From: Dehalococcoidia bacterium
GTDB lineage: Bacteria > Chloroflexota > Dehalococcoidia > UBA2979
Length of the DNA: 64,000 nucleotides
Direction: 5' to 3'
Assembly (NCBI GenBank): GCA_965219085.1
Contig: OZ244720.1
Span: 2,400,001-2,464,000 of the forward strand
In this document: piece after piece, positions 34,995 through 43,558 of the stretch
Layout: each line of letters opens with the position of its first letter
Numbering within the stretch: the stretch's first letter is position 1
The notes under the pieces: generated by a model
Seen by the model: only the letters and a program-made list of their open reading frames with translations
Told to the model about the DNA's origin: nothing
The model's database searches: none
Made by a program: the position numbers and the translations under genes

Positions 34995-36620
<1,626 letters not shown>

Positions 36621-36725
36621 GCGCTTCAACTCCTTCTCAGTCGCTGCATCGAGGGCCGTACAAGAACGCCGCGGACCGCCCTCTCAGTCCCGCGACGCCG
36701 GTTTGCTTCCGTCAGTACGCACTCG

Positions 36726-36752
36726 TTAGCACTCTCACTTGCCGAGTGCTAA
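36726..36752. promoter_or_regulatory. CIRCE element (HrcA operator)
   Basis: Exact TTAGCACTC-N9-GAGTGCTAA upstream of groEL. Confidence 0.97.
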
Positions 36753-36784
36753 ACGTTTGTACCCAATCGAGCCCCACTGCGCAA

Positions 36785-36809
36785 GTACCCGCGCCGGAAG
36801 CGCGGGTAC
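36785..36809 (-). terminator. Hairpin just beyond the distal copy of the nuoB 3' end
   Basis: GTACCCGCGC-CGGAA-GCGCGGGTAC. Confidence 0.6.
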
Positions 36810-36811
36810 AT

Positions 36812-36888
36812 CGAACGCAACGCGGAGCGGCTGTTAGCGCTGGAGCAGCGGCACGCCGCCGCTGCGCCGCATCGGGTCGTCGAGGCCC
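36812..36888. repeat. 77-bp direct repeat, copy 1 (duplicate of the nuoB 3' end)
   Basis: Matches 38620-38696 at 76/77 positions. Confidence 0.95.
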
Positions 36889-36898
36889 CGGTGAGGTG

Positions 36899-38539
36899 TC
36901 AGCGGTCAGCATGACGCCCCGAAAGGGCTTCGGTCGCGCGCGCCATAGCGGGCGTGCACGCCGAGCACCAGCCACTGCCTGACTCGCGCCTCCCACACCC
37001 GAGGCACACGCCGCATTCAGGGCATTGCCGGGTGCCGATCGCGGGGCCGTTGCGTTCCAGGTGCGTCCAGCCCGCAGAGCCGCAGCTTGGGCAGGGGATA
37101 TGCACAAGATCTGCGTCCACCACGACTCGGACCTCACGCAGAGCGTCGTCGAATCCCGCCATCTGGAACATCAGCCCTTGCATCATCGTGGCCAACGTGG
37201 CCTGAGCCAGCTTGTTAATGGGCTCCGGGTCGGTGACCACGGTTTCGGCTGGGGTGCTGGTGTGGCGAGCCATTGCGGCCGTGCATGTCGAGCACCACGC
37301 GTCGGTCACGGATCCACTACAACCAAGACATACTCCGCAGCCATCGCAAGGCTCTACGCCGATCACTCGACCGTGACCGTCGACATGAGCCCAACCGACA
37401 GATCCGCACGCAGGACACGGGACACGTCTGTAGTCGACGTCAAGTAGTGTCCGCAACTCTCGGGCCACTTCGGCAAGACCGGCCTGGCTGAGGAGGTCTT
37501 CATGGCGAATTGTGGCTCCAATGGGTATCGGTTCTGTTCTGGCCCCGGTTCGTCCTGCCCCCTCGTCCTCGCGGACAAGTTCCAAGTCGGCGAAGTCGGG
37601 CAGTCCGATGTCTGGGTGCTCGCCGAGGATCCGCTCCGCAATGGATATGGCGGGCGTGCAGATAGTGCACCAACCGGCAACCTGTTCGTCGTCCCCGCAA
37701 GAAGGGCACGAGTGGCAGCTAAAGCAGACCCGGGCGCCAAGCAATCCGGGGTGGGGCCCGACGAGTGTGTAGCGCTGGAATCCGAAGAGCGGCTGGGAGT
37801 GCTCGCGCACTCCCGCTTCGGGACTGTCGCTCTCCACGTGGAGGTATCCGTCCACAGAACAGTGCCAGCAGCGTACTCGCTTGAGATTCGCGTTCTCCAA
37901 AGTTCGCAGATCCGCAACCGCGCGTTCGAAACCGGCATGATGGAGAGCGGTCGCCCTCAGAAGGAGCGCCTCCGAGGCCTCTCGAAACACAACTGCGGGA
38001 TTCGGGCCGCCGACCCCATGGTCGCAAAGAATCGCGAGACGACCTGCATAGACCGCCTCGCCTGCGAGCAGTCCGGCCACGCTGTAGTGCCGCTCCCCAG
38101 TCGCGATGGTGGCGCGGGACGCGGCAGCGGCTGCGTACGAGTGGCGACGTAGTATGTGGCCGAGAGATCCGCGGGCCCCATTGCCTGCAGACGCGAGTAC
38201 GGGGCTTAGCACTTCCTCGACGTACGCCGCTTTGGGACGCCCATGGAGCACAGTTTCGGCGCAGGTTCGCAGCCTGCCGGCGACCGTAGAGGCGAGCGCT
38301 CGGGCCTCGCTCAGATCGGAGCGCATCGCCTGACGTTGACGGGATATGCGTGACCGCGCAGGTTCGGCAGTGCGCTCCGGCGAATCCTCGGCCGCGCGCC
38401 AATCAGCAGCGACGTCGTCCAGAGCGTCAGCGAGGGCGCGGAAGATCGTCGCCGTGCCCGCCGAGGCGTGTGCAGCTTCAGAACGACGCGAAGCTCTGTC
38501 GCCCCCTCCGCCCACCCAGCGCCTGATTCTGTTCAGCAT
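36899..38539 (-). CDS. Hypothetical Cys-rich protein with three repeated putative multi-zinc modules
   Basis: 546-aa ORF filling the interval between the 77-bp repeats; three CxxC..GxxH..CxxCxxCxxC..WCxxC modules; TAGATT 7 nt before the ATG. Confidence 0.8.
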   Translation of the reverse strand: MLNRIRRWVGGGGDRASRRSEAAHASAGTATIFRALADALDDVAADWRAAEDSPERTAEPARSRISRQRQAMRSDLSEARALASTVAGRLRTCAETVLHGRPKAAYVEEVLSPVLASAGNGARGSLGHILRRHSYAAAAASRATIATGERHYSVAGLLAGEAVYAGRLAILCDHGVGGPNPAVVFREASEALLLRATALHHAGFERAVADLRTLENANLKRVRCWHCSVDGYLHVESDSPEAGVREHSQPLFGFQRYTLVGPHPGLLGARVCFSCHSCPSCGDDEQVAGWCTICTPAISIAERILGEHPDIGLPDFADLELVREDEGAGRTGARTEPIPIGATIRHEDLLSQAGLAEVARELRTLLDVDYRRVPCPACGSVGWAHVDGHGRVIGVEPCDGCGVCLGCSGSVTDAWCSTCTAAMARHTSTPAETVVTDPEPINKLAQATLATMMQGLMFQMAGFDDALREVRVVVDADLVHIPCPSCGSAGWTHLERNGPAIGTRQCPECGVCLGCGRRESGSGWCSACTPAMARATEALSGRHADR

Positions 38540-38619
38540 GACGAAGAATCTACAGCGAGGTGGCGAGCCTAGCTACTGACCCTCAAGGTCACTACGCCCT
38601 CTGTGGAAGCGTCTCAGGC

Positions 38620-38696
38620 CGAACGCAACGCGGAGCGGCTGTTAGCGCTGGAGCAGCGGGACGCCGCCGCTGCGCCGCATCGGGTCGTCGAGGCCC
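38620..38696. repeat. 77-bp direct repeat, copy 2 (nuoB 3' end, stop and 22 nt)
   Basis: Matches 36812-36888. Confidence 0.95.
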
Positions 38697-39346
38697 GCGT
38701 ACGGTGGGAACAGCGACTCCAGCTCGGCGCGGATCGGGTCGCCCTCGGGCAGGTACGGCGAGAAGTCGCCGTCGGGCTCGAGGCGCTCCCGGACGCCGTG
38801 GGTGCCGAACTCGCGGATCTTGTCCTGCAGCATCATCAGGCCCTGCAGCAGCGACTCGGGCCGCGGCGGGCAGCCGGGCACGTAGACATCGACGGGCGAG
38901 ACGAGGTTCACGCCGGGCAGGACGGAGTAACCGTAGGCGAAGGGGCCGCCCATGATCGCGCAGCCACCCATGGAGATGACCCACTTCGGCTCGGCCATCT
39001 GCACGTACACGCGCCGCACGGCCGGGGCCATCTTCCAGGTCACGGTGCCTGCGACGATCATCAGGTCCGCCTGGCGCGGCGAGGCGCGGAACACCTCGGA
39101 GCCGAAGCGCGCGATGTCATACCGCGAGGTCGCGCTGGCGATCATCTCGATGGCGCAACAGGCGAGGCCGAACATCGCCGGCCACAGCGAGGAGGAGCGC
39201 GCCCAGTTCATCACCTGGTCGACGGAGGTGAGGAGGACGTTCTTGCGCAGTTCTTCTTCGAGGTCGGCCGGAGCGACATCCGTCGACGAGTCGAAGAGTT
39301 GCAGACGTTGCCGGGTCTCAGGGCTCATGCCCCCGCTGCTCACCAC
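38642..39346 (-). CDS. nuoB: NADH-quinone oxidoreductase subunit B, standalone
   Basis: [37 protein letters not shown]. Confidence 0.95.
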
Positions 39347-39526
39347 GGCGTCACTCCTCGCTCCCCGGCTACCTTCGATCGGGCTAACGCCCCCGGGTGC
39401 CGGATCGCGGCGATCGTAGCCGAACGCGCCGAGGGCGTCGAGGCGCGGGCAGCGCGCGCACCTCGGGCTTCGCCGTCGCGTGCTGATGCCGACGCAGTCG
39501 TGGCGCGGCCAGGCGGCCCATGAGCA

Positions 39527-41089: not shown

Positions 41090-42382
41090 ATGCGGAGCCG
41101 CCTCGCCTTACTACTCGCCGTGGTGACCGCGTTGCTGGCGTTGTCGTGCGAGCACGGCGGGCACGAAGGTCCTGCCGCAACGTCGACGCCGACGACATCG
41201 GCGCGTGCCCCGACCACCGTTTCCATCGCGGGCCCTGTGCTCGTCTTCTCCAGCCCGCCCGGGAACCTCGACATCACCCCGTTCACTGAACAGGCGCGGT
41301 GGCATTGGGTGCGCGCTCTCGATACGGCCACCGGGGCGCGGTGGACCATCCTGGAACACCCGGTCAGGGCGAGAGTGGCCGACACGAGTCTCGTCGCCTA
41401 CGACGGCAAACGGGTTCGCAGGGTGTCCATCGATGGGTCGACGGAGGCGATCCTCTGGGAGAAACCGACCCAGGATCTGTCGGTCTCAGCAGACGGGACG
41501 AAGGTAGCGATTATGCTCGGCCACAGGCGGCAGGGCGTGGTCGTGCTCGATGCGGTGACGGGCGACGAGATCCGGTCGTTCACACGCGATGATCTCCGGC
41601 TCGATCGGCTCCATGCGCCGCTTGCGATCCTGGGCGAGTGGAGTACCGGCAACGACGCCTTCTCAATAGACCTCGATTGGCAGAGGCTCAACCGCAGTAT
41701 TCGAGAACTCTGGCACATTAGCTCGCCAATCCCGCCCTCGCGGAACACCATCCTCACGCTCGACGGCGATATCCGCGAGCCCGAATCGTGGCTCCTGTCG
41801 CCAGACTTCCGCCACGCGCTCGAACCCAGATTCGGAATGGGCTCTGACCCTGCTACCGCCTTCTGGTACCGCTTCGAGGTGATCCATGCGGAGACGGGCG
41901 AGATCGTCGCGACGGTAAGGCCGGAAGGTGATGCGGACATCACCCCCTATGACTGGCTGACCTGGGATGCGGGGCTGCGAGAGCGTCAGCACGTCGTGTG
42001 GCCCTCGAATGCTAACAGTTATGTGTACTTCGAATATCACCCGCCTTACGATGTACGGCGATCCAAGTCGCGCGCGCTCGATGACTGGTTGGCATGGGTT
42101 GAGGGGCGAGAACCACCGGACCTGAGAGCTCGGGTCTTGGACCTTGAAACAGGCGAGAGCAGGCCGCTCTCCTACGCTGAGTGGATTGGCGACCTCGACC
42201 AGCGCGTGGAGGAGGTGTGCCGTTTTGGCGAGCTGCCTCGATCGACGTGCGTGCTCCTGCTCAAGGGGGGCACTGTTTCCGAGAGCGCCACGAACTTTGT
42301 CGCGCTTGTCGAGCTCGACGAGCCGCTGACACTGTCCGCCGCGCTGTTTCGCGAGCCGTGCAGGTTCCCGGGAGACTGCTAG
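41090..42382 (+). CDS. Hypothetical lipoprotein, possible beta-propeller
   Basis: Signal peptide with lipobox LALSC, Thr/Pro linker, SADGTKVA and SPDFRH repeats; atypical codon usage. Confidence 0.7.
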   Translation: MRSRLALLLAVVTALLALSCEHGGHEGPAATSTPTTSARAPTTVSIAGPVLVFSSPPGNLDITPFTEQARWHWVRALDTATGARWTILEHPVRARVADTSLVAYDGKRVRRVSIDGSTEAILWEKPTQDLSVSADGTKVAIMLGHRRQGVVVLDAVTGDEIRSFTRDDLRLDRLHAPLAILGEWSTGNDAFSIDLDWQRLNRSIRELWHISSPIPPSRNTILTLDGDIREPESWLLSPDFRHALEPRFGMGSDPATAFWYRFEVIHAETGEIVATVRPEGDADITPYDWLTWDAGLRERQHVVWPSNANSYVYFEYHPPYDVRRSKSRALDDWLAWVEGREPPDLRARVLDLETGESRPLSYAEWIGDLDQRVEEVCRFGELPRSTCVLLLKGGTVSESATNFVALVELDEPLTLSAALFREPCRFPGDC

Positions 42383-43558
42383 GGATGGTCTGAACAACTC
42401 GCCTGAGCGGGTGAGCAGATGCGATCATGGGGCGACCCGGAGAGGGGCGCCCCATGCAGCAGCGTTCGTTCGGCAGCGTCGAGTACGAGCACAAGAAGGT
42501 CAAGACGAGGCGGCAGGCGTTCCTCGAGCGCATGGACAGGCTCGTCCCCTGGGCTGAGCTCGAGCAGCGCATCGCGCCCGTCTACCCGAAGCGCGGCCGC
42601 GGACGCCGCCCCTACGCGCTGCGCGTGATGCTGCGCATCCACTGCCTGCAGCTCTGGTTCAACCTCAGCGACCCCGGCATGGAGCAGGAACTCTATGACT
42701 CCCGTTCGATGCTCGAGTTCGCCGGTCTCAGCCTCTCCGAGCCGATTCCCGATGAGACGACGATCCTCAACTTCCGCCATCTGCTGGAGCGTCATCAGCT
42801 GGGAACGGCGCTGTTCGCGACGATCAACGCGCACCTGGCACGGCAGGGTCTGCAGGTGCGCGAGGGCACGATCGTGGACTCCACGATCATCAGCGCGCCG
42901 TCATCGACGAAGAACCGCGAGCGTGCGCGCGACCCCGAGATGCATCAGACCAGCAAGGGCCGGCAGTGGTACTTCGGGATGAAGCTGCACACCGGCACGG
43001 ACGCGCGGACGGGGCTGGTCCACAGCGTGAGCACGACGGCGGCGAACGTCTCCGACGTGACCGAGGCGCATCGCCTCTTGCACGGGGGTGAGACGGAGGC
43101 GTGGGGCGACGCCGGCTACCAGGGAGTGGAGAAGCGCCCGGAGCACGCGGGGTCGGAGGTGAGCTGGCAGGTGGCGCTGCGCCCGGGTCTCAGGCGGCAG
43201 CTGGCGCCGGGGGGCGAGGAGGCGCAGGCGGAGCGGCGCAAGGCCTCGGTGCGCGCCAAGGCTGAGCATCCGTTTCTCTACGTGAAGCGGCACTTCGGGT
43301 ACGCGACGGTCCGCTACCGGGGTCTTGAGAAGAACCGCCAGCGTCTCATGCTGCTGCTCGGTTTCACGAACCTGTTGCGAGCCGAGCCTCAGCTCGCCTG
43401 ATCGCGGGAGCCGTGCGTCCCGAATCGCCCGCCGGAGCGCTTCCGGAGCGACATGGAGGCGAGACCACCCATGGACCGCGGTATCGGGCCCCCACAGCGC
43501 GGCTCGGCACGCTGATCGATACGCACCGCGCCCGACACGCCACCTGATCAGACCATCC
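42383..43558 (+). mobile_element. IS5-family insertion sequence, 1176 bp
   Basis: Terminal IRs GGATGGTCTGA/TCAGACCATCC; CTAG target duplication at 42379-42382 and 43559-43562. Confidence 0.96.
42454..43401 (+). CDS. IS5-family transposase
   Basis: PDETTILNFRHLLE, IVDSTII, QWYFGMKLH, GDAGYQG, RAKAEHPF, RYRGLEKN. Confidence 0.96.
   Translation: MQQRSFGSVEYEHKKVKTRRQAFLERMDRLVPWAELEQRIAPVYPKRGRGRRPYALRVMLRIHCLQLWFNLSDPGMEQELYDSRSMLEFAGLSLSEPIPDETTILNFRHLLERHQLGTALFATINAHLARQGLQVREGTIVDSTIISAPSSTKNRERARDPEMHQTSKGRQWYFGMKLHTGTDARTGLVHSVSTTAANVSDVTEAHRLLHGGETEAWGDAGYQGVEKRPEHAGSEVSWQVALRPGLRRQLAPGGEEAQAERRKASVRAKAEHPFLYVKRHFGYATVRYRGLEKNRQRLMLLLGFTNLLRAEPQLA

Follow-up and report, generated by a model that had tools for sequence, protein, structure and literature searches.

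The 64,000-nucleotide stretch of DNA analysed here (the window; C1:2400001-2464000, and thus an offset of +2,400,000 on C1, the single 3.3-Mb contig of the Dehalococcoidia genome under study, G000) contains an insertion of 1731 bp at positions 36889..38619. The inserted segment carries a single gene and is bracketed by two direct copies of the 3' end of the neighbouring gene nuoB. This gene end is reused by different cargos in related genomes, there are roughly 20 segments of comparable architecture in the same genome, and none of the inserts found at the nuoB site encodes a recombinase. Our preferred reading, held with slightly better than even confidence, is that an accessory gene specific to this strain was inserted in the manner known as 'insertion with long target duplication' (ILTD), and that host homologous recombination on the gene end would be the agent.

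The two direct repeats (36812..36888 and 38620..38696, both on the minus strand) are 77 nt each with one mismatch, and they are the only two copies of this sequence in the 3.3-Mb genome (E = 1.8e-34 and 5.8e-33). When the pair is stretched without gaps to 87 nt, identity drops to 94%. In the nuoB orientation, the repeat comprises the final 52 coding bases of the gene, its stop codon and the 22 bases located 3' of it. The target gene itself (38642..39346, minus strand) encodes a NuoB-family protein of 234 amino acids (Oxidored_q6, PF01058, E = 1.2e-27), and the proximal repeat copy completes it, serving as the working 3' end plus 22 nt. The distal copy is displaced and remains contiguous with the original downstream flank. 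Only 2 nt separate it from a strong terminator-like hairpin (36785..36809, minus strand) that was originally behind nuoB and is predicted to fold with a GC-rich stem of 10 bp. The hairpin occupies the same place in G007, G014 and G016, and its pairing is preserved in relatives through a compensatory change (GTA..TAC versus GTG..CAC). The single mismatch (36852 C versus 38660 G) creates GTG in the distal copy and GTC in the proximal copy, both of which encode Val in the nuoB frame.

The inserted segment differs in composition from its surroundings, with a GC content of 65.0% compared to 69.8% for the genome. It contains only one long ORF (36899..38539, minus strand, the same as nuoB), which encodes an ORFan protein of 546 amino acids, leaves margins of only 10 and 80 nt and has a GC3 of 0.69 versus 0.93 for nuoB. 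A preliminary description of this region, made from the sequence alone, had already reported the repeats with their synonymous mismatch, the single atypical ORF and the location of the cargo between nuoB and its probable terminator, and all of these observations are confirmed exactly.

Comparison with relatives establishes that the segment is an insertion. When the 3.1-kb region was used as a DNA query against 18 genomes of the same genus, seven of them (G001, G006, G007, G008, G010, G011 and G012) were found to have an empty site with a single repeat copy, where the alignments from the groEL side and the nuoB side overlap by 51-61 nt. Another seven have gaps of 63-287 nt, three (G018, G014 and G016) have gaps of about 1.0-1.8 kb, and one is limited by its contig. 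In the four empty loci that were fetched (G007, G008, G012 and G001), 217-238 nt separate the groEL start from the nuoB stop, versus 2022 nt in G000, a distance that equals 214 + 1808. Among the fetched loci, longer spacers of 302-450 nt occur where short hairpin-type repeats have accumulated. Relatives align to both repeat copies over positions 17-24 to 77, and the first 22 nt or so of the repeat, corresponding to the spacer 3' of the stop codon, differ from species to species. Synteny of the gene pair holds throughout the genus, and the nuoB gene beside groEL is a stand-alone paralogue. A query of genome contigs with the NuoB protein returned one same-genus record. The cargo protein is present in none of the 60 related genomes searched.

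The three genomes with large gaps carry other cargos at the same gene end. In G018 there is a pair of genes for a Gp49-like toxin and an HTH antitoxin, as identified by Pfam, and on its far side is a 19-nt copy of the nuoB end consisting of the stop codon and 16 nt. This short copy matches the G008 allele exactly and departs from the gene end of G018 itself by one synonymous change in a Pro codon. The site in G014 holds a gene for a 274-amino-acid membrane protein, and that in G016 holds two paralogues of it. The boundaries of the duplication differ between events, and run from -52 to +22 relative to the nuoB end in G000 and from -16 to 0 in G018. No recombinase genes are present in the occupied spacers of these three genomes. 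The suggestion that the nuoB-groEL interval is the site of a mobile cassette is therefore consistent with what relatives reveal, in that the cargo is not fixed among them, both empty and alternatively occupied sites exist, and no integrase-bearing island resides there.

There is no integrase gene in the window. The genome as a whole encodes two tyrosine recombinases (C1:56759 and C1:2339071) and eight serine recombinases, and all are located outside the window, the nearest of each type being 97 kb and 125 kb (C1:2563400) from the site, respectively. The ends of the cargo lack any terminal inverted repeat longer than 6 nt, and the preliminary description was thus correct in reporting neither an integrase nor inverted repeats. 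A comparison of seven cassettes from this genome likewise revealed no 8-mer common to three or more of them at either end, and their terminal inverted repeats do not exceed 7 nt. Genes for RecA, Ku and a ComEC-like protein are encoded, and therefore both homologous and end-joining routes are available to the host. The search for ComEC-like genes was also positive in 10 of 14 control genomes and says little on competence.

The nuoB insertion had been treated as a one-off, which proved to be too narrow a view. A self-comparison of the genome for isolated direct repeats, in its more sensitive version, leaves 37 pairs after filtering. By our own reading of the ORF maps, about 20 of these pairs have one copy on the end of a flanking gene and a small cargo between the copies, and the remainder are paralogues, internal protein repeats or unclear. 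The recurrent segments are small, are lower in GC and are bracketed by the duplicated end of a neighbouring gene. Their cargos include a Fic protein (SoFic defence model), a P-loop ATPase, a VapBC pair, a retropepsin-like protease, an endonuclease/exonuclease/phosphatase protein, a PRiA4_ORF3-like protein and unnamed proteins, one of which is 446 amino acids long. Several other cargos look like two-gene toxin-antitoxin pairs. Cargo and target are on the same strand in about 18 cases versus 4 by our own reading, a bias that we do not use as evidence because neighbouring bacterial genes are usually co-oriented.

Several of these sites are also empty in relatives. The site of the Fic cassette is empty, with a single 81-nt copy, in four of five close relatives. 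The protease cassette is found behind a cysK-like gene, where G003, G007 and G008 have one 68-nt copy and where the protease cargo is absent from each of 12 same-genus genomes. At the site of the ATPase cassette, G007 and G008 each have a single copy, about 118 nt long. The VapBC cassette is common to G000, G016 and G008, and its duplication is 158 nt long and reaches the stop codon in G016, whereas an 84-nt remnant is present in G000. The PRiA4-like cargo differs in being located at a 5' end, where it lies between copies of the trpS leader plus the first 30-odd codons; this site is empty in four relatives and occupied in four. Among the small cassettes flanked by gene ends in G000 are those at C1:1073814-1075420, 1166925-1169413, 1470270-1470996, 2158469-2159377, 2769486-2770957 and 2794022-2795351.

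The trpS site offers additional information because two relatives have arrays there. Both arrays contain the PRiA4-like gene (P) and a gene for a 107-amino-acid protein (M), separated by copies of the trpS leader and first codons. The order is repeat-M-repeat-P-repeat-trpS in G012 (L125, C1:2281500-2288500) and repeat-P-repeat-M-repeat-trpS in G004 (L126, C1:2582500-2588000). The repeat copy upstream of P has identical decay mutations and an identical junction in both genomes, and a shorter remnant with that boundary is present in G000. The copy upstream of M stops at the same codon in both. The opposite order of the two cargos, each with its own repeat copy, shows that the repeats are recombinationally active and that 'repeat plus cargo' behaves as a unit.

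Differences between the repeat copies provide another clue to mechanism, and they look allelic rather than the product of decay. For the displaced copy of the Fic cassette, four of the five variant bases match the allele of three relatives. The single mismatches at the nuoB site in G000 and G018 each fall on a natural synonymous polymorphism. By a hand count, 11 of 19 repeat mismatches are on third codon positions (p = 0.024). Mismatches are also concentrated towards the margins of a core without any differences, a pattern to be expected from crossovers or conversion within the repeat. The proposal that one nuoB copy derives from the allele of a related strain survives in part. The Val codon is indeed polymorphic, being GTG in nine of the 11 relatives examined and GTC in two, but the fit is weak because about one in 10 random substitutions would hit a known allele.

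In the reading that we favour, host recombination would form, disseminate and rearrange such cassettes, using the conserved gene end as homology arm. Incoming DNA from a related cell would bring a gene end plus cargo and would recombine within the resident gene end. Entry could be by a single crossover if the DNA is a circularized fragment, or through one homologous join and one illegitimate join if it is linear. The second repeat would be the gene end that was already resident, and the duplication keeps nuoB whole. Once formed, the repeat pair may permit RecA-type deletion, duplication and reordering.

Several observations weigh against this reading. Both nuoB copies in G000 share a lineage-specific 22-nt spacer, which is missing even in a 95%-identical relative. 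An identical lineage-specific spacer in both copies implies either that the donor was conspecific or that the duplication arose in place, and it fits de novo duplication of the target equally well. A single mismatch at nuoB is weak grounds for two alleles, and the mosaic patterns of the other cassettes could postdate insertion, through flank recombination or gene conversion. Furthermore, G004 holds a tail of M further out in its array, and unequal crossing-over would therefore explain the reordering without a free intermediate. The favoured reading does not account for the tight fit of the cargo ends around their ORFs, nor, like every other model, for the first joint between the far end of the cargo and nuoB position -52. 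The cargo has no second copy in the genome, and scans of genome and metagenome contigs for the context of its only homologue (P0002, described below) revealed no relative.

Excision products are also lacking among the available data. The contigs of four sequencing runs from one study, which probably derive from the source sample, show neither a circle nor an empty-site variant, although rare excision products and circles are invisible to contigs. No joint that skips 1808 bp is listed in these contigs, and the cassette is present at flank depth. The proposed excision of a circle through the repeats finds no echo at this level.

The strongest competitor, to which we assign a minor share of the probability, is a true target duplication by break and repair. 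A staggered or two-chromatid break near the hairpin and 74 nt upstream would be filled in, a foreign fragment would be captured by Ku/LigD end joining, and both repeats would be copies of the resident sequence. This route readily accommodates the near identity of the nuoB copies, which differ at one base overall and agree throughout the fast-evolving 22-nt spacer. One junction is only 2 nt from a strong hairpin, Ku is encoded, the cassette ends have no common motif, and events at one gene end have unlike boundaries (-52 to +22 versus -16 to 0 in G018). However, a fragment captured at random would seldom contain just one ORF and margins as small as 10 and 80 nt, and several cassettes are this tight. 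In addition, copy differences in other cassettes match natural alleles and favour third codon positions, and the same cargos occur at the same site with conserved junctions in several genomes, although shared inheritance could also explain this last observation.

It is unlikely, and less probable than break and repair, that the segment is a remnant or non-autonomous site-specific integrative element, similar to a cis-mobilizable element (CIME), with the repeats as attL and attR and movement in trans by a recombinase encoded elsewhere. Targeting of a gene 3' end with restoration of the gene is typical of integrase-driven elements, and eight large serine recombinases are encoded in the genome. 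Mobilization in trans had been proposed for this cassette, yet neither the cargo, the window nor the occupied spacers of G018, G014 and G016 contain a recombinase, and there are only two tyrosine recombinases in the genome. The roughly 20 sites each have a repeat of different sequence and length, the seven cassettes compared have no common end motif, and the boundaries vary between events at a single gene end. The combination of a separate repeat for each site, the lack of a shared end motif and the differing nuoB boundaries argues against a site-specific enzyme.

An assembly artefact, in which the chromosome is empty and the assembler wrongly placed a 1.8-kb circle with one repeat copy in it, is very improbable. 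In the four runs, the contigs, which are based on 31-mers, end within the repeat, such that the integrated form and a 'circle plus empty site' are indistinguishable in them. Nevertheless, the cargo and its flanks have equal depth in all four runs (7.6-15.2 versus 7.4-15.6), a 1:1 ratio that a 1.8-kb circle without replication functions should not hold. Moreover, the genome is one 3.3-Mb contig, and the same architecture is seen in independent assemblies, such as for VapBC in G016, the arrays in G012 and G004, and the site in G018.

The cargo protein has a helical N-terminal half followed by three Cys8-His modules that resemble zinc ribbons. Alignment of the three modules yields the invariant pattern C-x2-C..G..H..C-x2-C-x2-C-x2-C..WC-x2-CT. 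There is only one homologue among 5.8 billion proteins, P0002, which is 77% identical and encoded on a 3.1-kb contig, and an exhaustive search of 1.84 billion representatives returned only the cluster of the cargo protein itself. P0002 retains all 24 module cysteines, which argues for a real protein that probably binds zinc. The whole protein matches no Pfam family and gives no PADLOC match, and searching the separate modules against Pfam produced only sub-threshold zinc-ribbon matches (E = 0.2-1.5). No usable match was obtained from the ESM Atlas. The AlphaFold model of the whole protein is unusable (mean pLDDT 38.5). A model of a single module reaches a pLDDT of 72 and has no match in the PDB at E <= 0.001, with the best (E = 0.15) being to generic zinc-ribbon regions.

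These modules could bind nucleic acid and some insertion sequences make long, variable duplications, but it is scarcely credible that this ORFan is a new kind of transposase or recombinase making long target duplications, given that it is single-copy in the genome, lacks terminal inverted repeats, matches no catalytic family or fold, and has sister cassettes of the same architecture with unrelated cargo (Fic, VapBC, ATPase).

The cargo is on the nuoB strand and ahead of the old nuoB terminator hairpin, and therefore it is probably transcribed by read-through from nuoB, which would be the simplest expression route for a gene in this position. The '-10-like box' previously ascribed to the cargo ORF is not recovered, as a sigma-70 consensus scan yields no promoter-like sites in 36500-39500, although such a scan is a weak test for this phylum.

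The gene located 3' of the site is groEL (34995..36629, minus strand; Pfam Cpn60_TCP1, E = 3.7e-73). Its leader contains the inverted repeat TTAGCACTC-N9-GAGTGCTAA (36726..36752), which is host sequence outside of the insert and is present in all of the relatives' spacers that were fetched, indicating genus-wide conservation. We take this palindrome to be a CIRCE-type element, the operator of HrcA. Its position before groEL suggests HrcA-type heat-shock control in this Chloroflexota bacterium, judging from sequence. The nuoB-groEL spacers of four other relatives (L010, L011, L013 and L014 in G003, G009, G002 and G004, respectively) hold hairpin-forming repeats, CCCTCTCCC...GGGAGAGGG, which resemble REP or MITE elements and may form a family within the genus. 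There is a second nuoB homologue at G000:C1:1578747-1579129, which is 72% identical in DNA. An IS5-like transposase gene (DDE_Tnp_1 + DUF772; 42427-43401) is located 3.7 kb away and outside of the repeats. It adjoins a 430-amino-acid ORF in a low-GC stretch (about 62%), and this region (41090-43401, 2.4 kb from nuoB) looks like a further accessory patch. Most of the sequencing runs in which parts of the sequence recur are sponge metagenomes.

Other observations concern related segments elsewhere. Homologues of VapBC with 68-80% DNA identity are found at other loci (L121, L122, L123 and L124, in G014, G007 and G018). Homology outside the two ORFs stops within about 15-30 nt, and the unit is thus tightly delimited at each locus. 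There are also 127-nt direct repeats around 27 kb (G000:C1:793889-794015 and 820920-821046) and 51-nt direct repeats around 17.8 kb (G000:C1:1893365-1893415 and 1911150-1911200). Both longer segments are candidates for genuine integrative elements.

Small accessory, defence and addiction genes turn over at hotspots beside core genes. To our knowledge, how such genes enter without a mobility enzyme is poorly understood. The closest published footprint is ILTD, which was reportedly first described for restriction-modification gene units by Nobusato et al. in 2000. Furuta, Abe and Kobayashi (2010, NAR 38:2428, PMC2853133) recognize it by three features, namely an empty site in a related genome, repeats of >30 bp and a lack of mobility genes, and report it for restriction-modification genes in several phyla, including two H. 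influenzae cases that overlap gene 3' ends. According to the same paper (PMC2853133), repeat length varies by case and the mechanism is unknown. The driver suggested there is that the restriction enzyme breaks DNA, and a cycle in which units are inserted, amplified and released is added to this, with experimental support for the amplification step only; IS1630 is mentioned regarding long duplications (PMC2853133).

The nuoB cassette agrees with three of the four ILTD criteria taken from Furuta et al. (2010). There is an empty collinear site in seven of the 18 same-genus genomes, the repeats exceed 30 bp (77 nt, one mismatch) and align to one copy at the empty site, and the insert is below 20 kb (1731 bp) with no mobility gene, recombinases at least 97 kb away and a repeat that is not multi-copy. 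The cassette departs from the fourth criterion, a restriction-modification cargo, as the cargo has no Pfam or PADLOC match, and we therefore file the cassette as an ILTD footprint and not as a restriction-modification unit. Relative to ILTD as presented in that paper, the likeness extends to a small gene unit compared with an empty site, direct repeats of >30 bp, the lack of a transposase or integrase, variable repeat length and placement at gene 3' ends. In contrast, the cargos at the nuoB site and in the Fic, VapBC and other cassettes are not restriction-modification genes, so the restriction-breakage driver suggested there cannot apply to them. Restriction cleavage is removed as a general cause by the diversity of cargos, which comprise the ORFan and SoFic-like Fic, VapBC, ATPase, PRiA4-like and retropepsin-like proteins. 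Also different from the cases in that paper are the sponge-type Chloroflexota host, the density of about 20 events per 3.3 Mb, the placement at gene ends with a same-strand bias, and the arrays.

A literature search for ILTD found no Chloroflexota case and no case with non-restriction-modification cargo among the matches listed, and a literature search pairing 'target duplication' with 'homology-facilitated illegitimate recombination' found none. The footprint is of a known kind, and it occurs here with non-restriction-modification cargos, dense recurrence, reuse of gene ends and arrays in one Chloroflexota genus. The value lies less in the single nuoB cassette than in the number of events per genome, the gene-end reuse and the arrays, by which an old mechanistic question becomes testable. 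Several near-complete genomes of one genus form a natural data set for separating homology-anchored from end-joining models.

Other known systems share individual features with the cassettes. CIMEs are integrase-less islets that have retained att sites belonging to a known integrase family, and a related resident element mobilizes them. The nuoB cargo resembles them in lying between attL/attR-like direct repeats with no recombination gene inside. It differs in that no cognate integrase was found in the element, the window or the occupied spacers, nor any parent element, and in that each site has its own repeat; the boundaries at the target are not fixed, as they differ between G000 and G018. 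The ssrA islands of Dehalococcoides, from the same bacterial class, are said by McMurdie et al. (2011) to carry a serine recombinase and to be stacked on a single gene, at its 3' end, where the repeat is about 20 bp long. Each of those islands leaves a short direct copy of the gene end, as here, but they use their own recombinase and one site, whereas the present cassettes have no recombinase, many sites and longer, variable repeats. IS1549 and IS1634 are insertion sequences that make long, variable target duplications; the nuoB cargo is unlike them in being single-copy, without terminal inverted repeats and without a transposase family match. At rhs, cdiA and type VI secretion system (T6SS) effector loci, new modules bring along the gene end in a further copy, displace the old end outward and build orphan arrays. 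The incoming piece brings a conserved gene-end copy in both situations, but those loci swap the variable tip of the same protein, whereas here a separate gene is added and the target protein is unchanged.

The integron offers perhaps the most instructive comparison. Its cassettes are similarly compact, mostly single-gene and apparently promoterless, they lie on the same strand behind a host promoter, and they form arrays that change order. The difference is that the repeats here are host gene ends, with no attC-like structure, no shared site and no integrase by the arrays; at the nuoB site the longest terminal inverted match is 6 nt, no attC-type inverted repeat or IntI/attI platform was found, and tyrosine recombinases are at least 97 kb away. 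We raise, as a tentative and distinctly less secure proposal than the insertion route above, that the gene-end repeats could be the portable homology arms of a recombinase-free cassette system, a RecA-driven functional analogue of the integron in sponge Chloroflexota. In such a system, a gene end and one promoterless gene would move together between related cells and within arrays. The units would insert behind or ahead of the matching gene without disrupting it, and would be expressed through its transcription. If true, portable homology arms would supply a mechanism for 'insertion with long target duplication'.

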